From Candidatus Hecatella orcuttiae (lineage in GTDB: Archaea > Thermoproteota > Bathyarchaeia > Hecatellales > Hecatellaceae), in assembly GCA_002011035.2 (NCBI GenBank), contig MTLY02000001.1:288001-352000 (forward strand): a stretch of DNA of 64,000 bases. Direction: 5' to 3'. The stretch's first letter is position 1. Each line of letters begins with the position of its first letter. The position numbers and the translations under genes are program-made. Below the pieces are notes generated by a model. That model saw nothing but the letters and a program-made list of their open reading frames with translations. It did not search any database and was not told the DNA's origin. Positions 617 through 64,000 of this stretch are shown one piece after another.

Positions 617-1804
617 TTAAATTTTTCTGGCAAATTCTTCTCCGTACTCCAAGCATTTTCGGGTTTCTTCCTCGTCTGGAACCCATTTGACAGTCAAGCC
701 GGGGGACAGTATCTCTATTCCCGCCTGCCGGAGGGCTTCTTCAATATGCCTCACCGCACCTCCACCCCACCCGTAGGAGCCAAAGGCGGCTGCAACTTTT
801 TTCCTAGGCTTTAACCCCTTTAGGTCTTCGAGGAAGGATGCAAGAGTTGGGAGGATGCCGCTGTTGATGGTAGAGGAGCCTACTAGGAGGCCTTTAGCTT
901 CAAGAAGCTCCCTAATCAGGGCTCCTCGGTCTGAGAGCGGCAGCCTGAACAGCCTTACTTCAACGCCTTCCCTGCGGATGCCTTCGACGATGGCTTTAGC
1001 CATCTTCTCCGTGCTGCCCCACATAGTATCGTAGACGACTAGGATTTTCTTTTCAGCCTCTCCCCGAGCCCAACAGAGGTAGGCTTCAAGGATCTTCGCT
1101 GGGTTGCTCCGCCAAATGACACCATGGCTTGGAGCTATCATGGCGACACTCAGGTTTCGTTGCTGAAGTTCCTCTATTTTCTTTATCACCAAGGAGCTGA
1201 AAGGCCAGAGGATGTTGGCGTAATATTTAGCCGCCTCCTCCATTAGAATGTTCTCATCCACCTCGTCGTCAAACCGCTTTGAGGTTGCCAGATGCTGGCC
1301 GAAGGCGTCGTTGGGCAAAAGCAGACCGTCTTTTCCTACATAGGTGAACATGCTGTCAGGCCAGTGCAACATGGGAGCCTCTATGAAGCTTAGAGTCCTT
1401 TCGCCGAGGTTTATTTCGTCCCCGGTTTTTACCACCTGAAAATTCCAGTCTCTGAAAAAATAGTGTTTAAGTAATCCCTCTTTACATCTGGCCGTGCCTA
1501 CCACCTTTGCCTTCGGAGCGAACTTTAAAACTTCGGCTAGGGCTCCGGAATGGTCCGTCTCCACATGGTTGATGACGATGTAGTCAATTTTTTCGGGTTC
1601 CACTATCTCCCTGATTCTCTCCATCATTTCCCCTCCAAAAGGGGCGTAGACACAGTCCACCAAGACTATTTTTCCGTCCACAATGAGGTAGGCGTTGTAG
1701 GTTGTCCCCCGAGGTGTGGAGTAAGTGAAGCCGTGGAAGTTTCTGACGTTCCAGTCCACCGCACCGACCCAGTAAATGTTTTCTAGAACCTCAACCGGCT
1801 TCAT
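617..1804 (-). CDS. fprA: Flavodiiron protein FprA (MBL + flavodoxin domains)
   Basis: NHVETDH, HWPD, DAFGQH, PSHG, YDTMWGST and GSYGW motifs. ATG at 1804 (MKPVEV) preferred over the ORF-track start. Confidence 0.92.
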   Translation of the reverse strand: MKPVEVLENIYWVGAVDWNVRNFHGFTYSTPRGTTYNAYLIVDGKIVLVDCVYAPFGGEMMERIREIVEPEKIDYIVINHVETDHSGALAEVLKFAPKAKVVGTARCKEGLLKHYFFRDWNFQVVKTGDEINLGERTLSFIEAPMLHWPDSMFTYVGKDGLLLPNDAFGQHLATSKRFDDEVDENILMEEAAKYYANILWPFSSLVIKKIEELQQRNLSVAMIAPSHGVIWRSNPAKILEAYLCWARGEAEKKILVVYDTMWGSTEKMAKAIVEGIRREGVEVRLFRLPLSDRGALIRELLEAKGLLVGSSTINSGILPTLASFLEDLKGLKPRKKVAAAFGSYGWGGGAVRHIEEALRQAGIEILSPGLTVKWVPDEEETRKCLEYGEEFARKI

Positions 1805-1931
1805 AAAGGACCGCCTGATTTCAGAGAATGTTATCTTAGCTCCGATAAGAGTTTTCCTCTCCCCCACCTTTCAGCCTACTGCGGAGTGAAGTGATTAGCT
1901 TAAATAGGCGGCTTCGGAAAACTATAAAATC

Positions 1932-2561
1932 ATGGCCCAGTATGGGTTTACTCCCCCTGCCGCATTCAGGCCTGTGATGGTTTTCATCGACGGAGGCTAT
2001 GTGCGGGAGATTTTCAGGGAAAAATTCGGCCATGATAGCATAGACTTTCATAGATTGGTCACCATCATGAACGAATATCCTTTTCGAGGAAAAAGCATTC
2101 AAGGAGAACTGCTGAGAGCCTACTACTACGACGCCATAGTCGAGCAGACGGAAGACCCCCATCTGTTCAGCAGACAGCAGGCTTACTTTGACAATATTGA
2201 AAAGTCTCCCGACATCCAAGTTAGGCTGGGAAGACTGATTCGAACCCATGCGGGTTACAGGCAGAAAGGCGTGGATGTGCTACTGGCCATTGATATGCTG
2301 AGCATGGCCTTCCAAAACCGCTACGAAATCGCCATTTTTCTGGGCGGAGACGACGACTTTGTAGACCTCATCGACGCCGTTAAAAATTCAGCCGGCAAGA
2401 GAGTTTTCGGCTTCTACTACCCTCACCGAATATCTAGACGGCTCTTCAATTCCTTTGACCAAAGATTCGAATTGGATGAAAACATTTTAAACAGCATTAA
2501 AAAACAGGGAGACCACTCTGCACCAGGAACAGACAAAAAAGGCGGGAACGCTAGGTTTTAG
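1932..2561 (+). CDS. NYN (LabA/DUF88) PIN-like domain protein
   Basis: VFIDGGY, QKGVDVLLAIDM and GDDDF motifs. Confidence 0.88.
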   Translation: MAQYGFTPPAAFRPVMVFIDGGYVREIFREKFGHDSIDFHRLVTIMNEYPFRGKSIQGELLRAYYYDAIVEQTEDPHLFSRQQAYFDNIEKSPDIQVRLGRLIRTHAGYRQKGVDVLLAIDMLSMAFQNRYEIAIFLGGDDDFVDLIDAVKNSAGKRVFGFYYPHRISRRLFNSFDQRFELDENILNSIKKQGDHSAPGTDKKGGNARF

Positions 2562-2569
2562 GGTCGAGT

Positions 2570-3565
2570 TCACCGCAGTTCTTGAAGAGCCTTAAGCCTT
2601 TTCACAATGTTTGGGTGGGTTGAGAAGATCTCCGCAAACCGGTCAGCCCAAGTAAGCCTCCGGGAGAGAATTTCGTTTACAAGCTGCTGATCCGATGCAT
2701 ATCGAGAATAATGGGAAAGTTCGACGACGTCTCTAGAAGCTCTGACAGGGTCGGCTATGAAGAGGGATTTGAAGCTGCTCAGGCTGCCTATTTCCCGCCC
2801 CTGATACCGCCTCATCCTCCCTGAGAAGCGAACGATCTTAGCCAAGCCTTCGGACAGTTTACGGGCGCCGTCCTCCACAATGCTGACACTGGTTCTGTCC
2901 GCGTAATACTCTCGGTATCGGCTTAAACCCAAGACGAAGAGAGAGAGAATCCAGTAGATGGCGAGGCAGGCGATGCCGATGAGGAAGGGCGCCGCTGCAC
3001 CTTGCCCTCTTCTAGCTCCGTAGCCGCCGAACCAAGTGGAGAGCATGAGGGAATAGCCTAGGAAATAGAATATAGCCGGCAGAACGGAGACGAACATCAT
3101 AATCTGCACATCTCGATGTTTGAGATGGCCTAACTCATGCCCTATCACGGCCTCCACCTCTTCCTCTTCCAAGTTCTTGAGCAGCCCCTCCGTTACCGCC
3201 ACCCTGCTCCCTGTCAAGGGGGAACCGTAGGCAAAGGCATTGGGAATTGGAAGGCGGGCAATCATCAGCTTAGGCGTCGCTAGGTTTAGCTTCCGGCTTA
3301 GCCTTTCCACCATTCCATAGAGGCGACCGTGCTCCGACCTTGAAGCTTCCTTAGCCTTGTACATGGCCTCTATGAGTTTAGGGGCGAAAAGCCACTGGAT
3401 GATGTTGAAGATGACCACGATGGGCATCAGAACCAAGAGACTGAGACTGCCGGTAAGAGTCAGAATGGCTGCGAAGAAAAGGGTGGAAGCTCCGATGATG
3501 AAAGCCAGCGTGCCGTACATGGAGAGGCGAAGCTTCAAAAGACTCATAGGGATACCCTCTCTCAT
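2570..3565 (-). CDS. htpX: Zinc metalloprotease HtpX (M48)
   Basis: PNAFA, HELGH, SRYREYYAD and FSTHP motifs; TM segments. Confidence 0.93.
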   Translation of the reverse strand: MREGIPMSLLKLRLSMYGTLAFIIGASTLFFAAILTLTGSLSLLVLMPIVVIFNIIQWLFAPKLIEAMYKAKEASRSEHGRLYGMVERLSRKLNLATPKLMIARLPIPNAFAYGSPLTGSRVAVTEGLLKNLEEEEVEAVIGHELGHLKHRDVQIMMFVSVLPAIFYFLGYSLMLSTWFGGYGARRGQGAAAPFLIGIACLAIYWILSLFVLGLSRYREYYADRTSVSIVEDGARKLSEGLAKIVRFSGRMRRYQGREIGSLSSFKSLFIADPVRASRDVVELSHYSRYASDQQLVNEILSRRLTWADRFAEIFSTHPNIVKRLKALQELR

Positions 3566-3721
3566 TGAGAGAAGAAAAAGAGGTTTATAACTTTAACGTT
3601 GACACATTAAACCGCATTCAGTTAGCTGAATGCTCTTGGGGAAAGCTATTTAAGCAGACTTTGAAAAATACTGCTAACTCTTCCACCTCTAGTAATTGCC
3701 GAGAAGCGGAGAAGACCTCTG

Positions 3722-5317
3722 ATGCAGGGAGAACGGTATTCCCCCCGTATTCAAGAACACCCCATTCTCAGCTTTGAAAGGGGGAGGAAAATAAAGTTCT
3801 TCTTCGACGGCCGGGAGATCGAAGCCTACGAAGGGGAAACCATTACGGCGGCCCTCTACGCGGCGGGGATAAGACAGCTCACCGAGAGCCTGAAATACAG
3901 GCGGCCTCGAGGGTTCTTCTGCGCCATAGGAAAATGCTCCAGCTGCCTAGCTCAAGTTGACGGTGTATCCAACGTCAAAACCTGCGTAACCTTGGTTAAG
4001 GAAGGCATGGATGTCAGATCCCAGAAAAGAAAATTTTCTCTCCTAGGCTCCTTGGTTTCAGCCGCCTTGAAGCGCGGCCTGTTTCCATCCGTCGGAGGCC
4101 ATTACAAGAAGCTTGTGGGCGGCCCGCTTGTCTGGCCTCTGGCCCGGAGAGCCATAAAAGCCATGGCGGGATTCGGGGAATTCCCCGAACCTAACCCGAC
4201 GCTGGGGAAGTTTCTTCCCAGCGAAACATGGGAAGGAGACTTGGTGGTGATAGGCGGCGGCCCCGCGGGTATTTCAGCGGCCCTCTACGGAGCTAAGCTG
4301 GGTTTGAAGGTGGCGTTGGTGGATGAAAACAGCCGCCTAGGGGGGCAACTGGTCAAGCAGACCCATCGCTTTTTCGGCTCTAAGGAATATTATGCTGGAA
4401 CTAGGGGATTTGAGATTGGGAGAATTCTGGAAAAAGAAGCCGCCAGCTACAGTAACATCACCGTCTTGCTAGACACCACCGTCTTCGGCTTTTACCCCGG
4501 CAACATCTTGGGCGCAGTTCAGAAGATAGATTTCTGCAAGGAGAAGATGGTCAAGCTTAGAGCTAAAAGAATGGTCTTCGCCACCGGAGCCTACGAGAGA
4601 ACTTTGATCTTCGAGAACAACGACCTGCCAGGGGTTATGGGAGCCGGAGGCGTTCAAACATTGATGAATGTTCAAGGGATAAGACCTGGGAAAAACGGCC
4701 TCATCATCGGAGCCGGCAATGTGGGCCTTATCCTCGCCTATCAACTGCTCCAAGCAGGGGTGAGGGTGGAGGCTGTTATTGAGGCCATGCCAGGGGTAGG
4801 CGGATATTTCGTCCACGCAGCCAAGATTAGGAGAGCTGGGGTTCCCATTCTCACCTCGCACACGATCCTGAAGGCATTGGGGAAGGGAAGCGTAGAAGGC
4901 GCTGTGGTGGCCAAGCTTGACGACAAGTGGAATCCCCTTCCCGGCAGCGAGAAAGAACTAGAATGCGACTTTATCTGTGTGGCCGTGGGGTTGCATCCCA
5001 GCTTTGAACTCCCCTACCAAGCGGGTTGTCAGCTGAAGTACGTGCCTGAGCTGGGGGGAATGGTTCCCGTCCACGACCAATGGATGGAAACCTCGGTTCC
5101 CGGGATCTACATCGCTGGAGACACTTCAGGCATTGAAGAGGCCAGCACCGCCATTCTAGGGGGGAGAATAGCCGGCCTCTCCGCCGGCTTATCCTTGGTT
5201 AAAGACCGAGAAGCGGAAAAGTTGCGATCGGAATTCGTGAAAGCCCTAGAAGAGTTCAGGGACAATCCTCTAAGCGCAAAAATCAGGGAAGGAAAGAAAA
5301 AGGCTCAACCGAGGTGA
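3722..5317 (+). CDS. Dye-linked L-proline/sarcosine dehydrogenase-like alpha subunit (2Fe-2S + FAD/NAD oxidoreductase)
   Basis: RPRGFFCAIGKCSSC 2Fe-2S motif; GGGPAG, ATGAYER, GAGNVG. Confidence 0.82.
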   Translation: MQGERYSPRIQEHPILSFERGRKIKFFFDGREIEAYEGETITAALYAAGIRQLTESLKYRRPRGFFCAIGKCSSCLAQVDGVSNVKTCVTLVKEGMDVRSQKRKFSLLGSLVSAALKRGLFPSVGGHYKKLVGGPLVWPLARRAIKAMAGFGEFPEPNPTLGKFLPSETWEGDLVVIGGGPAGISAALYGAKLGLKVALVDENSRLGGQLVKQTHRFFGSKEYYAGTRGFEIGRILEKEAASYSNITVLLDTTVFGFYPGNILGAVQKIDFCKEKMVKLRAKRMVFATGAYERTLIFENNDLPGVMGAGGVQTLMNVQGIRPGKNGLIIGAGNVGLILAYQLLQAGVRVEAVIEAMPGVGGYFVHAAKIRRAGVPILTSHTILKALGKGSVEGAVVAKLDDKWNPLPGSEKELECDFICVAVGLHPSFELPYQAGCQLKYVPELGGMVPVHDQWMETSVPGIYIAGDTSGIEEASTAILGGRIAGLSAGLSLVKDREAEKLRSEFVKALEEFRDNPLSAKIREGKKKAQPR

Positions 5318-53457: not shown

Positions 53458-54855
53458 ATGGACTACCTAACCAGAATGGGAGACGGCCGACCGGTAAGAA
53501 TGAGCAAAGAGCAGATAAAAGCCGACATCGAAGCCGGAACCAAGGACGCGGCGGAAAAAGCCCACGTCCCCGAGCTTTCAGGAGCCGAACAAGAGCATCT
53601 GCTGGAGATCATCACCGACCCCAACCGGCTGGTAGCCGTGGAGCCGGGGAGAGAAGTCGTCCTCACCCACGACGTAGGGCCTTTGAAGGTGATGGCCGAC
53701 CAGTCCAACAGCGGAGTGAGCATCCCATGCTCCCGGGAGCAAGCCATGTGCATCTACGAGAAAGCCTTCAGCGCCGACACCGCCGAGCTGGGGCACATCG
53801 ACTACAGCTTCAAACCCGTTAAACCCATCATCACCCAGGAGCAATCGGTCCTGCAGAACGTCCTGCACATGACCATCCTCCCCATCTTCTACGGAGCCAT
53901 GCCTAACCTAGGCCTATACTACGCCCCAGACGGACCCTTCCCCGAACCCATCGGGCTCATCAAGGACCGCAAGATAGGGGAAGCAAAAGAATCCATGGAA
54001 AACGCCGCCCACAGGTTTGTGGAAGACCTAGAATACATCACCGTGAGACTCTACGAGGTAGGCTTGGACGCCTTGAACATCGACACCACCGGCGCCGGAG
54101 GCGACGCAGACTTCTACGCCTCCCTTACCGCCACGGAAAAGATAAAGAAGGAATGCCCCTACCTCTGCGTGGAAATGGGCATGGCGGGAGAATTCATCCT
54201 AGGATTCCACACCGAGCTGAAATATCAAGGCGTCAAACTGGCGGGACTCTGGCCTCACCAGCAAGCCAGCCTCGCTGAAAAGGCAGGAGTGGACATCTTC
54301 GGCCCGGTGGTCAACACCAAGCCTTCTCTGTCCTTCCCCCTCAACATCGCCAGAGCAGTCACCTTGGTCAAGCACTGCGTCAAAGAATCCAAAATCCCCA
54401 TCCACGTCAACATGGGCATGGGCGTTGGGGGAATCCCCATGTACGAAACTCCGCCGGTGGACGCTGTGACCCGGGCCAGCAAGGCAATGGTTGAAATCGC
54501 CGAGGTAGACGGCTTATAGGTGGGAGTGGGCGATCCCTTTGGGATGCCCATAGCTCACTGCGCCGCCAGCGGCATGGGAGGCATCAGGACGGCGGGAGAC
54601 ATGGTGGCTAGGATGCAGATGCTGAGATATAGGTTGAAGGACGCGAAGGACTACGTGGCCAAGAAGCTGGAAACCGACACCATGGCTCTGCGGGACGAAT
54701 TTGAGATGAGAAGGCTGAGGGAGAGGCTCAACATCGGCACTATCACAGGCGTCCCAGGGGTCGCCAGGGGCCTCGAAGCCAAAGCCCGAATCGCCGAGAT
54801 CCTCGGCATCCGCATCAACGCTGTCGAACGCCTTAAGGAACTGGTGAAACTCTAA
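53458..54855 (+). CDS. mtbB: Dimethylamine methyltransferase MtbB, Pyl at codon 354 (TAG 54517-54519)
   Basis: TRMGDG N-terminus; VDGL-O-VGVGDP matches the MtbB Pyl motif; ORF continues in frame for 111 aa. Confidence 0.95.
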
Positions 54856-54863
54856 AGAGCCAA

Positions 54864-54936
54864 GCCCAGAGCCACCGCCCACCGACCCACGCGTGAAGCG
54901 AGGGGGATGAGGGAACGGCTAAGCCTCTGGGCCACA
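54864..54936 (+). ncRNA. Box H/ACA-like guide RNA complementary to the mtbB UAG context
   Basis: GCCCAGA/UCUGGGC stem, pocket CCACC + UAAGCC, CCGA/GAUGAGG K-turn, ACA at 54934-54936. Confidence 0.82.
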
Positions 54937-59322: not shown

Positions 59323-59362
59323 AAAAATAGAGGGGAAATTTAGGCTGATTTAATCAGCCAAG

Positions 59363-60847
59363 CTACCCGCGCGCAGCCCTGTCCGCTTCTTTGACGATAG
59401 CCTCCATGGAGGCCAACAGGTCTTTGTCGATGGGTGGAACCTGGTGAGTCTTCAAGATTTCCTTCGACTTTTGGTAGGCCAAGTAGGCTAGGTCCTTCTT
59501 GTCTGTTTTTTTCTCCCAAGTTCCTCGCATGTCCCTGTTCAGCAGCGTGGGGAAGGATTCCTCCGCGTCCATCCATTGGAGGGTGTGCTTCTTGGAGAGG
59601 AAGTTCCCCCCAACCCCCACCTCTTTTATGAGGTCTGTCGCCAAGGTGTCATCGTTCACAGAGATGCCCTTGGTAGCCCTCCGGCACATGGCTATGATAT
59701 CGTGGTCGATGATCAGCTGCTCCAAGCTGAACGTTTGACCCAGCTCCAGCATCCCAGCGCCGTAGATGGCATTGGCCCCCGCCAGCATGGGCAGGAGGGT
59801 GGTTATGGTCTTCTCGTGGGCAGCCTGCGCGTCGGGGAGCTTGGCATCAGCCTAGGTGCCTGCCACATAGCTGGGCAGCCCATAATACTGCGCAAGTTGC
59901 GAAACAGCGGCGCTTATCAGCCCCAGCTCCGGCGCTCCCACGGGTGCTGTGGCCGTCCTGAGGTCGAACATGGTGGTGGAGCTGCCGTAGATGACAGGTG
60001 CACCGGGCTCTGTCAGCTGGGCGAGGACGATGCCTGAGAGCACTTCTGCGTTATGGGTCACCAAAGTGCCGGCCAACGTCACGGGGCCTGTAGCTCCAGA
60101 CATGGCCATGCTTAGCACGTTCACCGGGATGTCGTAGCGGGCTCCTTGGATGATGACTCCGCAGGCGTTGGCGTGCAGCTGGAGGGGACTGGTGGGACAC
60201 AGCAACACGGATATGATGGGCCTCTTCCTGAAGGCTTCTTCGTCGCCTCCATAGTAGGCGACACCCATCTTGAAGTAGTACTCCATGTGCTCAGCCACCG
60301 GGTCGACGTGGTGGAAGTGTTTTCTCGTCCCCACCCAGGAAGTGAAGGTTTCGTGGACGTCCGAAGCCAAGCCTTCCATCAGAAGCTCTCTGGCTGCACA
60401 GGGCAGGGAGAAGAAGTCGATGGTGGAGCACCAATCTGCAAGGACAGCGGCTTCATAGACGTCTTGATTGTTCGACTCTCGAATGGAATTGGTTTCATAT
60501 TCGTAGGTGTACAGCCCCGTGCCGAAGGTAGTGTTACCCACTTTTCTTCCAGCCTCTAGAAGCACGTCGCTTCCCTTTTCACGGCCGGCTAAAAGGACTC
60601 GGCCGGGACACTTGTGGAGGGCGTCCTTAACGATGTGCTCAGGAATCCTCACCATGCGTTTCACCGGGTCAACGTCACATCCTCCCTTTTTGAAGATTTC
60701 CAAAGCCTCTTCATGGTAGACTCCAACTCCGCTGGTCTTCAATACGTCCATCGTCTCCGAGTTGATGCGGTCTAGGGCGTCTCTGGAAAGTAGCTCCAAC
60801 CTAGCTCCTTGAACCATGTCAAGTCCGGCGAAGAGTTTCACTGGCAT
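59363..60847 (-). CDS. mttB: Trimethylamine methyltransferase MttB, Pyl at TAG 59852-59854
   Basis: [25 protein letters not shown] matches the MttB Pyl motif; ATG 60847 follows the GGAGGTGA RBS. Confidence 0.95.
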
Positions 60848-60913
60848 TGCATTTTTCACCTCCCTTTTTTCTGGGTATTTGTTTCATCACGCCCCTCCTC
60901 GGCGCTCGATGAG

Positions 60914-60977
60914 TGTACCCTTCAAGCATCTCCGCCCCTCATCAACATGGTTCAGGGCAGCGGCTTGGCTGAAGGGT
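60914..60977 (-). ncRNA. Box H/ACA-like guide RNA complementary to the mttB UAG context
   Basis: ACCCUUC/GAAGGGU stem, pocket AGCC + GAUGCUU, CUGA...AUGAG K-loop, ACA 14 nt below the pocket. Confidence 0.72.
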
Positions 60978-60993
60978 TAAACCGGATGATGGG

Positions 60994-61644
60994 TCATTTC
61001 TTTTCCAGAAGTTCTTTAGCCTTGTTCACAGCGTCGACAGCATCTTCTCCTCGAGCGTCAGCACCGATGACTTTAACCCAGTCAGCGGTAACCGGCGCGC
61101 CTCCGACCATGTAGACTACTTTGTCCCTGATGCCTGCCTTCTTCAACTCTTCAGCCAAAGTCTTCTGCTCAGGCATGGTGGTAGTCATGAGGGCAGAAGC
61201 GCCGACGATATCAGCGTTGACCTCTTTGGCCTTGTCTACGATGGTTTTAGCCGGTATGTCGCGGCCTAGGTTGAACACTTGGAATCCGGCGGCCTCCATC
61301 ATCACGGCGACGATGTCTTTTCCTAGGTCGTGAACGTCTCCGAGGACTGTGGCTATCACTACTTTGCCTAGGTATTTTCTTTCCTTTCCCGCCTGAAGCT
61401 TAGGCGTCAGCATGACTATCGCTTCCCTCAGAGCATCAGCCGCCATCATGACGTGAGGGAGGTAGAGTTCACCTTTCTGGAAGGCTTCCCCTATCTTCCG
61501 CATTTCTTCGGTGCTGGCGTCGATGGCCGCTAAAGCGTCTATGTCAGACTCGAGGATCTTGTTCACGACAGCCTTCGTGGCTTCCACGTCACCTTCGCGG
61601 ATCGCTGCGCACAATTTACGCAATATTTCTTCTTTTTCAGCCAT
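60994..61644 (-). CDS. mttC: Trimethylamine corrinoid protein
   Basis: DVHDLG, SALMTTT, MVGGAPVT; upstream of mttB. Confidence 0.88.
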   Translation of the reverse strand: MAEKEEILRKLCAAIREGDVEATKAVVNKILESDIDALAAIDASTEEMRKIGEAFQKGELYLPHVMMAADALREAIVMLTPKLQAGKERKYLGKVVIATVLGDVHDLGKDIVAVMMEAAGFQVFNLGRDIPAKTIVDKAKEVNADIVGASALMTTTMPEQKTLAEELKKAGIRDKVVYMVGGAPVTADWVKVIGADARGEDAVDAVNKAKELLEKK

Positions 61645-61818: not shown

Positions 61819-61861
61819 GGAAAGATAAAAGTACAAATTGGTGAACTGCGAAAAAATTGAT

Positions 61862-61929
61862 GGGGGATCGGCCGGGGGGCCACAAGAGTTCTAACCTCTT
61901 GGAGCCGGGTTCGACTCCCGGATCCCTCG
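61862..61929 (+). tRNA. pylT: tRNA-Pyl (CUA)
   Basis: 7-bp acceptor, 1-nt linker, GGCC/GGCC D stem with 4-nt loop, 6-bp anticodon stem CAAGAG/CTCTTG, loop TT-CTA-AC, 3-nt variable loop, CCGGG/CCCGG T stem, G73; CCA not encoded. Confidence 0.96.
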
Positions 61930-61969
61930 GCACAGGAAAAGGGCTTATTTAAAATCTATGTGAGCTTCC

Positions 61970-62816: not shown

Positions 62817-63926
62817 GTGGAATTGATGCCCCTGACGAGCACCGCCTTGAAGGGCGAGGCTTCCCGCGAGGTTCAGGAAATTCTGGCAAAAGCCGCTGAG
62901 GGAAACTTAGAGGAGAAGGACGCCCTACGCTTGATGAAAGCCGAAGGCATAGACGACTTGTTCGCCCTGTTCAACACCGCCCATGAGATAAGAAAACGAC
63001 AGTTCGGCGACAAGGTTTTCGCCTACGGCTTCGTCTATTTTTCCACCTACTGCCGGAACAATTGCTCCTTCTGCCTTTACCGGCGTGCAAACCGGTGTGC
63101 TCCCCGCTATAGGAAAAAAGCAGACGAAATAATGGAGATAGCGGAGATGTTGAAGAAGTCGGGAGTGCACCTCATCGACTTAACCTCGGGGGAAGACCCT
63201 CAAATCCATTCGGAGAAAGGGTACCGCAGACTGTTGAGCTACGTGGAGAGGCTGAAGAAGGAATTGGACATGCCTCTCATGGTTTCACCGGGGGTTTTAC
63301 CGAAAACCGTTCTCAGGGAGTTGGGAAGAAAAGGTTTGGACTGGTATGCCCTCTACCAGGAAACCCACAACCGCCTTCTTTTCTCCAAGCTCCGCTGCCG
63401 CCAAGACTATGATGAAAGGATGAAAGCCAAGACCTACGCCAGAGAAGAGGGAATGCTTATTGAGGAGGGAATTCTCATCGGTGTAGGCGAAAGCAGGGAA
63501 GACGTGGTCGATTCCGTCTACCAGATGAAAAAGATGAAAGCCCACCAGGTTAGAGCCATGGGCTTCATACCTCAGAGAGGAACTCCTATGGAAAGCCGCC
63601 CCTCGCCGCCGATTCTCGAAGAAATGAAGGCCATATCTTTGATGCGCCTTGTCCACCCAGATAGGCTGATCCCAGCTTCCTACGACATCGACGGTCTTAA
63701 AGGCCTAGGCCTACGCCTGATGGCTGGGGCCAACGTGGTGACCTCCCTGATACCTCCAAGGTTTCACCTCCGGGGAGTAGCCCAGGCGGAGTTGGATGTG
63801 GAAAGCAGCCTGCGAACGCTTTCTGGCGTAAAACCCTACCTCCAAAAGCTGGGATTGGAGGTAGCTTCCCTGAAGAGTTACAGGAAATGGATTGAAGAAG
63901 AGAAAGCTCGCCTCCCGGGGAAATAG
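62817..63926 (+). CDS. pylB: Methylornithine synthase (radical SAM)
   Basis: YGFVYFSTYCRNNCSFC, DLTSGED, LIPASYDIDG, GANVVTSLIP. Confidence 0.95.
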   Translation: MELMPLTSTALKGEASREVQEILAKAAEGNLEEKDALRLMKAEGIDDLFALFNTAHEIRKRQFGDKVFAYGFVYFSTYCRNNCSFCLYRRANRCAPRYRKKADEIMEIAEMLKKSGVHLIDLTSGEDPQIHSEKGYRRLLSYVERLKKELDMPLMVSPGVLPKTVLRELGRKGLDWYALYQETHNRLLFSKLRCRQDYDERMKAKTYAREEGMLIEEGILIGVGESREDVVDSVYQMKKMKAHQVRAMGFIPQRGTPMESRPSPPILEEMKAISLMRLVHPDRLIPASYDIDGLKGLGLRLMAGANVVTSLIPPRFHLRGVAQAELDVESSLRTLSGVKPYLQKLGLEVASLKSYRKWIEEEKARLPGK

Positions 63927-63932
63927 GCTTCC

Positions 63933-64000
63933 ATGCCCGTCAAAACCTTATGCATCGCAGGCGGACGGCTTCAGGGAATTGAGGCTGCCTACCTTGCCAG
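63933..64000 (+). CDS. pylC: 3-methylornithine-L-lysine ligase, N-terminus (truncated by the window end)
   Basis: MPVKTLCIAGGRLQGIEAAYLA matches the PylC N-terminal GGxLQGxEAAYL motif. Confidence 0.88.
   Translation, partial: MPVKTLCIAGGRLQGIEAAYLA

Follow-up and report, generated by a model that had tools for sequence, protein, structure and literature searches.

How a cell that reads UAG as pyrrolysine (Pyl) distinguishes the UAG codons to be read from those that terminate has been a question since the discovery of pyrrolysine. Two answers are usual: Pyl users have few UAG stops, or they switch their Pyl genes on only when these are needed. Neither fits the genome of Candidatus Hecatella orcuttiae (an archaeal assembly of 1.75 Mb in three contigs), from which the stretch of 64,000 nucleotides (nt) shown above, here called the window, is taken, because this organism is a non-methanogen that uses Pyl, its Pyl genes look transferred, and TAG terminates 293 of its 1,126 crude long open reading frames (26%). 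Four genes of the genome contain an in-frame TAG at the Pyl position, namely mttB, mtmB, mtbB1, and a second mtbB (mtbB2) on contig C3. In the spacer between mttC and mttB we find a 64-nt hairpin, mttB_up, that has the architecture of an archaeal H/ACA guide RNA and is probably a real site for an H/ACA-type ribonucleoprotein (RNP). The two strands of its pocket fit the flanks of the in-frame UAG of mttB better than expected by chance, and ACA-anchored hairpins accompany the other three Pyl operons as well. These hairpins beside Pyl genes hint at a possible way in which a stop codon could be marked to be read as pyrrolysine.

The hairpin between mttC and mttB and its companions

The hairpin mttB_up starts 16 nt past the mttC stop codon and ends 66 nt ahead of the mttB start codon (Table 1). 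Its lower stem (P1) of 7 base pairs (bp) can be extended to 9 bp by an A-U and a G.U pair on top, so that the two pocket strands measure 10 and 8 nt with the shorter P1, and 8 and 6 nt with the extended one. Above the pocket, the upper stem (P2) of 6 pairs is followed by a U.G pair and a tandem of sheared G.A pairs (G.A and A.G), giving a GA stem of 9, and is closed by a kink-loop (K-loop), a predicted site for L7Ae. The ACA box follows P1 without a gap, 15 nt from P2; if the G and the A at the top of the pocket are counted as a pair, the GA stem becomes 10 and the ACA lies 14 nt away. The initial annotation of this stretch, which had proposed a guide for the mttB amber codon here, named the right parts on the right strand, but its P2 of seven Watson-Crick pairs is in fact the 6 pairs, the U.G and the two sheared G.A pairs just described, and its ACA distance of 14 nt holds only when the pocket-top G and A are taken as paired.

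The hairpin satisfies all published structural rules for archaeal single-hairpin H/ACA RNAs as to lower stem, pocket, upper stem with K-loop and ACA spacing. According to Muller et al. 2008 (PMC2377435), H1 should measure at least 7 bp, each loop strand 5-11 nt and H2 5-6 bp, the ANA should lie 14-15 nt away from the target position, and of the two guide arms the 3' one matters more; Toffano-Nioche et al. 2015 (PMC4652768) add that the GA stem is 8-11 long, most often 10, and that the stretch leading to the ACA measures 14-15 nt. The minimum free energy (MFE) fold of mttB_up has the H/ACA shape, and its folding energy as such is unremarkable (z -1.63; 15 of 200 shuffles were equally good). The genes for all four partner proteins, Cbf5, Nop10, Gar1 and L7Ae, are present in the genome, Cbf5 with a match of 326 bits read in two frames. 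Rfam models searched against the mttB_up region at a permissive threshold returned chance-level matches only, none better than E = 1.5, and the hairpin is no pyrrolysine insertion sequence (PYLIS) element, the PYLIS_3 match being located at 59755-59854, where it starts at the mttB UAG. We also considered mttB_up as an inverted copy of the 5' coding region of mttB, and dropped this idea as the similarity extends over 17 nt only (p = 0.014 against shuffles).

The Cbf5 match (G000:C3:210886-211856, plus strand) is divided between two reading frames, with an overlap at about 211100; a frameshift or an error in the assembly could account for this, and so could an mRNA intron. An mRNA intron in cbf5 is known from some archaea.

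We evaluated the rarity of this architecture with a strict descriptor applied to both strands of the genome, in which P1 had to be perfect and no shorter than 5 bp, the pocket strands 4-12 nt and P2 5-7 bp long, with closure by NGA-loop-GAN (loop 3-16 nt) and an ACA 14-16 nt from P2; the loop range was chosen after mttB_up was known, and the remaining limits come from the literature. The 1.75-Mb genome has 13 matches, 11 of which have a P1 of 5-6 bp, while the P1 of the other two measures 9 and 10 bp. These two are mttB_up and a hairpin in the mtmC-mtmB spacer (mtmB_up), the only matches in the whole genome with a P1 of at least 9 bp. In comparison, the mean over 20 first-order Markov genomes was 6.45 matches, with 0.15 per genome having a P1 of at least 8 bp and none of the 20 having one of at least 9 bp. 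When the ACA and distance rules were dropped, about eight loci had a P1 of at least 9 bp and the 14-16-nt spacing, and an ACA follows only the two clean hairpins. This rarity is in agreement with the initial annotation, which had judged a chance origin of the hairpin unlikely.

The second clean hairpin, mtmB_up, begins 5 nt past the mtmC stop codon, 31 nt ahead of the mtmB start codon and 6.5 kb from mttB_up in the same island. It has a P1 of 10 bp, the pocket AAACCC/UAAAG, a P2 formed by GCAUGCC and GGUGUGC, the K-loop CGA-CUGAGCAU-GAG and an ACA at 15 nt, and its MFE structure is likewise the H/ACA fold (z -2.36). Both clean hairpins have the NGA...GAN arrangement of the K-loop. In a hand alignment of their P1 stems, both sides differ in 5 of 9 pairs, which would be covariation only if the hairpins are homologous; we built no covariance model because a MAFFT alignment of the two conflicted with the structure.

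In a further search, blind to both K-loop and complementarity, we looked for an ACA located 0-2 nt from a stem that has 6 bp or more and closes 40-95 nt, in the non-coding sequence that surrounds the four Pyl operons (1,546 nt in all). This identified five hairpins, one per Pyl operon and one extra, all with stems of at least 8 bp, where 0.53 would be expected from the genome-wide density of such hairpins (1,208 with stems of at least 8 bp per 3.50 Mb). The two at the mtbB genes, mtbB1_down and mtbB2_down, lie downstream of their genes, the former 8 nt past the mtbB stop codon and before a T7 run, and they keep P1, ACA and the 15-nt spacing. In mtbB1_down, which was the first guide proposed by the initial annotation, the P1 has 8 bp, the distance between the irregular P2 and the ACA is 15 nt, GA/GA motifs are present, and the 3' pocket reads CUAAGC, whereas the upper stem of mtbB2_down has 3 pairs only. 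All four elements are located 5-30 nt past a stop codon (of mttC, mtmC, mtbB1 and mtbB2, respectively), and T-runs follow two of them. The extra hairpin, downstream of mtmB, has a P1 of 9 bp; it lacks a K-loop and fits no UAG context (rank 1,061 of the 1,114 hairpins ranked below). Thus, the four operons each have an ACA-anchored hairpin beside them, which bears out the association with Pyl genes that the initial annotation had seen at mtbB and mttB, while its statement that the sequence of mttB_up is unrelated to that of the mtbB guide is not correct, as the two have a 9-mer in common.

This 9-mer, AGCCAAGCC, lies in the pocket of mttB_up (60962-60970) and at the start of mtbB1_down (54856-54872); mtmB_up has ACCAAACCC at this place.

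Fit of the pockets to the in-frame UAG codons

For mttB_up the proposed target is the Pyl UAG of mttB with its flanks, GGCAGGCACC-UA-GGCUGAUGCC. On the 3' arm, CAGGCACC pairs with GAUGCUUG, with one C.A mismatch, one G.U pair and one base from P1, and on the 5' arm AGCC pairs with the GGCU that follows the UA of the codon; these pairings are in the sequence just as the initial annotation had written them, and RNAduplex assigns -6.5 kcal/mol to the 3' pocket with CAGGCACC. We scored all four elements with the pockets fixed by geometry, permitting 0 or 1 unpaired guide base at the top, and took the 841,530 U sites of the genome as the null. For mttB_up, 0.31% of the U sites are as good as or better than the mttB codon, which ranks 4th of 420 sites in its operon with P1 = 9 and 1st with P1 = 7 (shuffled-pocket p = 0.003). 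The corresponding fractions are 0.37% for mtmB_up and mtmB (0.16% with flush pairing; operon rank 1 of 389; p = 0.041), 0.046% for mtbB1_down and mtbB1 (1 of 328; p = 0.0014), and 0.022% (188 of 841,530) for mtbB2_down and mtbB2 (1 of 510), the pocket of the last pairing with its own context GCAUU-UA-GGUG by 5 + 4 bp. Each of the four elements fits its own UAG better than the UAGs of the other three Pyl genes. Furthermore, the 3' guides of the two mtbB hairpins, C-UAAGC in mtbB1_down and C-AAUGC in mtbB2_down, face GCUUA and GCAUU, respectively, so that the guides differ at exactly the two positions where the targets differ, by two compensating changes. The same scoring applied to eight Pyl loci of other organisms gave a maximum of 21, compared with 32, 25, 23 and 18 here. 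When 1,114 ACA-anchored hairpins were ranked blindly against the four UAG contexts, the elements came 1st (mtbB1_down), 28th (mttB_up), 62nd and 262nd, and for three of the four the best target was the own gene.

However, a number of observations weigh against the UAG codons as targets. By the standards of proven guides the pairings are weak. Flush pairing of the mttB_up pocket with the mttB UAG yields nothing; the fit requires one unpaired guide base on each side, contains a C.A mismatch at -2, and draws on the weak top of P1 for two or three of its bases, although the unpaired bases at the pocket top could form a G.A pair, giving the GA stem of 10 with the ACA at 14 nt. The claim of the initial annotation that the pocket addresses its own UAG thus has partial support, in that this is the best of the four codons and 0.31% of the sites are as good, while the match itself is poor; taken over the four elements together, the signal is stronger. 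In the case of mtmB_up, only 3 + 3 bp are formed, the 5' duplex has -1.4 kcal/mol, where a cut-off near -6 kcal/mol is given in PMC4652768, the shuffled-pocket test reaches only p = 0.04, and in the blind ranking this is the element that came 262nd of 1,114, with another gene as its best target. Neither mtbB1_down nor mtbB2_down passes the strict descriptor, since their upper stems are irregular, and the MFE fold of mtbB2_down departs from the proposed one. Genome-wide, 1,294 of the 841,530 U sites pair with mttB_up as well as or better than the mttB codon, and therefore the pocket could discriminate only in cis. Better targets other than the amber codon, which the initial annotation had named as evidence against its proposal, hence exist in a formal sense, but none of the 1,294 lies in rRNA or tRNA and none looks meaningful.

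The scoring itself calls for similar caution. It was partly post hoc, the offset option having been added after the alignment of the initial annotation had been seen, and therefore the p-values are valid only on the assumption that the pockets were set in advance; in addition, mtbB1_down had originally been picked for its complementarity. We estimate the chance of finding a bipartite antisense match of 9 nt within 500 nt of operon at about 0.14 (1 in 7). Moreover, mttB_up (also HP1 in what follows) has four complements of at least 9 nt in its own operon RNA (P = 0.008 for four or more, against random windows), and its 5' half is complementary to the word (GC)UUGGCUGA, which occurs five times in the operon. 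One of its 10-mers, UCAGCCAAGC (60972-60963, nt 6-15), perfectly complements GCUUGGCUGA, located right after the UA of the stop codon UAG of mttB. With such recurring complements, word repetition or some other RNA-RNA contact could explain part of the fit. Apart from this, GCUUGGCUGA also opens a terminator-like stem, GGCUGAU/AUCAGCC. Finally, the strict descriptor has no match in 13 Pyl loci from genomes, 36 Pyl loci from metagenomes and two MtmB loci, the genus being without another genome.

Weighing these points, we regard the addressing of Pyl UAG codons by H/ACA modules carried in the operons as the single most likely function, and put it forward tentatively, judging from complementarity and location. 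The hairpin mttB_up would be carried within the mttC-mttB operon transcript as an H/ACA-type RNP module, in which L7Ae would bind the K-loop, and Cbf5, Nop10 and Gar1 the ACA box and the lower stem. The two pocket strands would then pair with the flanks of the in-frame UAG of the same mRNA, leaving the U and the A unpaired in the active site of Cbf5, and the codon would become pseudouridine-A-G, or would at least carry a mark and be held there. With this mark, tRNA-Pyl could read the Pyl UAGs while ordinary UAG stops still terminate, and the need for it would arise because TAG ends about a quarter of the genes and the Pyl island appears foreign to the lineage. The complete form of this proposal, in which natural guides encoded in the operons turn the in-frame UAG of each Pyl mRNA into pseudouridine-A-G, which the release factor ignores and tRNA-Pyl reads, is rather doubtful.

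Table 1. Location of the hairpins, their parts, their proposed targets and the surrounding genes. Positions are those of the window unless a contig or locus is named.
Feature	Location	Strand	Remarks
mttB_up (HP1), H/ACA-type hairpin	60977-60914	minus	64 nt, between mttC and mttB
P1 of mttB_up	60977-60971 / 60923-60917	minus	ACCCUUC / GAAGGGU, 7 bp
5' pocket strand of mttB_up	60970-60961	minus	AGCCAAGCCG; would pair RNA 3' of the target U-N
P2 of mttB_up	60960-60955 / 60937-60932	minus	CUGCCC / GGGCGG, 6 pairs
K-loop of mttB_up	60954-60938	minus	UGA-ACCAUGUUGAU-GAG, 11-nt middle; closes P2; predicted L7Ae site
3' pocket strand of mttB_up	60931-60924	minus	AGAUGCUU; would pair RNA 5' of the target U
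ACA box of mttB_up	60916-60914	minus	15 nt from P2
Proposed target, mttB Pyl UAG with flanks	59843..59864	minus
mttB Pyl codon UAG	59854-59852	minus
mtmB_up, second clean hairpin	G000:C1:355508-355569 = L008 5508-5569	minus	mtmC-mtmB spacer; strict descriptor
mtbB1_down, ACA-anchored hairpin	54864..54936	plus	past the mtbB stop
mtbB2_down, ACA-anchored hairpin	G000:C3:407952-408012	minus	past the stop of the second mtbB; pocket CAACACC / CAAUGC
Fifth ACA-anchored hairpin	G000:C1 ~353960	minus	downstream of mtmB
mtbB Pyl codon UAG	54517..54519	plus	context GACGGCUUA-UAG-GUGGGAG
U of the mtmB Pyl codon UAG	G000:C1:354864
U of the mtbB2 Pyl codon UAG	G000:C3:408375
HP2, K-turn-like leader	60872..60907	minus	36 nt, upstream of the mttB ribosome-binding site, 6 nt past the ACA box
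mttC-mttB	61644-59363	minus
mttC, corrinoid protein gene	60994..61644	minus	Pfam B12-binding and B12-binding_2
mttB, trimethylamine methyltransferase gene	59363..60847	minus	Pfam MTTB, E 3e-51; ATG at 60847
mttB own stop UAG	59365-59363	minus	followed by CUU GGC UGA
mtbC-mtbB	~52.8-54.9 kb	plus
mtmC-mtmB	L008 6234-4085	minus
pylT, tRNA-Pyl	61861..61931	plus	anticodon CUA
pylS core, pylB, pylC, pylD	extending beyond the window end		Pfam PylS-core, radical SAM, ATP-grasp, PylD_N
Window	G000:C1:288001-352000		archaeal assembly, 1.75 Mb, three contigs

Other explanations and the genomic setting

The hairpins might also be H/ACA RNP modules without a UAG target that serve RNA metabolism on the polycistronic mRNA, where they would define or protect a 3' end after processing and thereby determine how stable the C and B messages are relative to each other. 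In eukaryotes, H/ACA domains stabilise snoRNA-ended and telomerase RNAs. The location of all elements 5-30 nt past a stop codon and the T-runs after two of them speak for this role, the architecture and the protein genes are accounted for just as in the UAG reading, and the weakness of the UAG pairing by guide standards ceases to be a difficulty. However, it leaves unexplained why each pocket fits its own UAG best, and why the two mtbB pairs covary, and we consider it unlikely.

About equally improbable, in our assessment, is an intercistronic stem-loop that is not an H/ACA element and only resembles one by coincidence, with the complementarity to the UAG contexts arising from chance and repeated words. 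This would be consistent with the modest energy z-scores (-1.63 for mttB_up and -2.36 for mtmB_up), with the recurrence in the operon of the word (GC)UUGGCUGA complementary to the 5' half of HP1, and with the post hoc tuning of both the descriptor and the scoring. Conservation points in the same direction, as the hairpin is not conserved in the relatives searched. The spacer DNA of mttB_up has a match in none of 40 relatives, the C-B spacers of related Pyl loci measure 15-40 nt, the closest MttB loci having 62-84% identity, and MtmB(TAG) occurs in two of 400 other genomes of the phylum, both with short spacers. DNA contigs of four metagenome runs show no sequence variants in mttB_up, the hairpin being partly uncovered in them. 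A coincidence, on the other hand, does not readily account for the ACA at exactly 15 nt in both clean hairpins, which none of about six other K-loop hairpins with that spacing has, for an equally good match being found in 0 of 20 simulated genomes, or for the enrichment of ACA-anchored hairpins at all four operons (5 against 0.53 expected).

As a variant of the same explanation, mttB_up could possibly be a K-loop operator bound by L7Ae alone that works with a neighbouring module on the translation of mttB. This module, HP2, carries an L7Ae-type motif 6 nt downstream of the hairpin and has the sequence GA-GCGCC-GAGGAGG-GGCGU-GAU-GA...AAAUACCCA. It is single-copy in this genome, and occurs with 2-5 differences in other contigs of three of the four metagenome runs, and in three of 400 other genomes of the class at a constant 24-28 nt ahead of start codons. 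The genes behind it there are unrelated, encoding a secreted protein of 182 amino acids, a protein of 81 amino acids and an ABC substrate-binding protein. Its signature can be written as GA-[GCGCC-GAGGAGG-GGCGY]-RRU-GA, or as GAGCGCCGAGGAGGGGCG-YRRUGA-N-A-N-AAAUACCCA; the GA dinucleotides around the 5-bp stem are invariant, the 3-nt bulge is variable and the loop is Shine-Dalgarno-like (GAGGAGG). Since the GA dinucleotides are invariant while the three bases between stem and GA vary, HP2 shows a kink-turn (K-turn) pattern and resembles a K-turn leader, which might be an operator for L7Ae or a standby site for ribosomes. HP2 is separate from the H/ACA hairpin, without which it occurs in those other genomes.

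We also searched for targets of the two clean hairpins outside the Pyl mRNAs. The scan covered rRNA and the 24 tRNAs detected, tRNA-Pyl included, with 5S rRNA, RNase P RNA and signal recognition particle (SRP) RNA left out. In rRNA, nothing rose above background for either hairpin, the best sites of mttB_up being mismatched and scoring 18-22, compared with 23 for the mttB UAG, and in the tRNAs nothing convincing was found. A broader descriptor (K-turn, ANA box, loops up to 45-50 nt) combined with rRNA matching, intended as a positive control, returned only noise (322 and 602 candidates). The best flush sites of mttB_up in the genome are chance-like, a UAC codon in an open reading frame resembling class-II aminoacyl-tRNA synthetases and a site in a junk frame.

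The least probable explanation, an orphan H/ACA guide small RNA (sRNA) processed from the operon transcript and acting in trans on rRNA, tRNA or another mRNA, has in its favour the canonical motif, the frequent location of archaeal sRNA genes in short spacers, the small set of tRNAs and the three RNAs outside the scan, and the possibility that a target in rRNA could have been missed because the rRNA set is odd (two unlike 23S genes, long insertions), but it has against it the noise-like rRNA sites, the chance-like flush sites, and the fact that a single 16-kb island holds, in its C-B spacers, the only two clean motifs of the 1.75 Mb, a coincidence that we roughly estimate at about 1e-5 for unrelated sRNA genes.

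There are two unlike rRNA operons in the genome (G000:C2:464353-466521 and 467043-470232; G000:C3:4-640 and 827-4683). A 16S gene of 2,169 nt stands against a model of 1,478 positions, and one 23S gene of 3,857 nt against 2,987 positions; the rRNA genes are likely to carry long insertions, which are probably introns.

As to the Pyl genes themselves, pylT stands at the head of the pylS-B-C-D genes, which part the mttCB from the mtmCB operon. The genome contains no mcrA and about a dozen MtmB-like paralogues without TAG, and a PYLIS_2 match of Rfam begins at the mtbB Pyl UAG. Since MttB was not found in the 13 other members of the order and the 300 other members of the class searched, the Pyl island has the appearance of having been acquired by transfer. 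At the end of mttB (59353-59365, minus strand), a second stop codon, UGA, follows two codons beyond its own UAG, should that UAG be read through. At 63924-63940 (plus strand), the pylB gene also stops in a TAG; it is in frame with pylC, the ATG of the latter lying 3 codons further; with TAG as a residue, pylB and pylC would form a single frame of 774 amino acids, which may be a coincidence.

Relation to known guides and recoding systems

The closest known counterparts of mttB_up are the single-hairpin K-loop H/ACA sRNAs of archaea (the Pab/Pf type of Pyrococcus), with which it has in common the lower stem, the two-stranded pocket, the 6-bp upper stem, the tandem G.A and the ACA 15 nt from the upper stem, and whose four partner proteins are encoded here. 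In contrast to these free-standing sRNA genes, mttB_up is located inside the transcript of a protein-coding operon, has no target in the rRNA and 24 tRNAs scanned, and has as its best candidate target an mRNA codon about 1,060 nt downstream in the same transcript. It also differs from proven guide-target pairs by its far weaker complementarity and by its presence in no other genome searched. Even if the UAG reading is false, the hairpins would be the first H/ACA-type modules seen in protein-coding operons, and would suggest that the RNP takes part in the processing of mRNA.

PYLIS elements and the selenocysteine insertion sequence (SECIS) are similar in being RNA structures of genes in which an in-frame stop codon is read as the 21st or 22nd amino acid, and the eukaryotic SECIS even uses a K-turn bound by a protein of the L7Ae fold. 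However, PYLIS elements, matches to which are also present in this window, lie directly 3' of the UAG, whereas the hairpins described here are about 340-1,060 nt from the codon; SECIS works via a dedicated elongation factor, and both kinds of element lack a guide pocket and an ACA box.

The idea that coding sequences could be paired by H/ACA guides of archaea, with consequences for the termination of translation, has been mentioned (PMC4652768), and resembles our proposal in that archaeal H/ACA RNPs may pair with mRNAs. The mRNA cases as described there are computational predictions for trans-acting sRNAs, linked neither to the guide's own gene nor to pyrrolysine. In the literature searched, with subscription journals outside its scope, no publication that connects H/ACA guides with pyrrolysine came up, and on pyrrolysine together with pseudouridine, the matches listed concerned tRNA engineering only. 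If the UAG reading is true, the hairpins would represent the first natural editing of a stop codon directed by guide RNAs, and would offer a mechanistic answer to how a Pyl UAG is told from a stop UAG, namely recoding at specific sites, although this archaeon continues to end about a quarter of its genes with UAG. They would also extend the H/ACA RNPs of archaea from the maintenance of rRNA to programmed recoding of mRNA, and provide synthetic biology with a natural template for site-selective suppression of stop codons.

Finally, such recoding has an engineered precedent in yeast, where H/ACA-guided pseudouridylation of stop codons leads to read-through (cited in PMC4652768). The likeness lies in an H/ACA pocket that puts the U of a stop codon into the catalytic site, and in the expected effect, the loss of termination. 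While the yeast system is artificial and reportedly acts in trans with full complementarity, its codon being read by near-cognate tRNAs, the system proposed here would be natural, would probably act in cis, and would favour a cognate suppressor, tRNA-Pyl.

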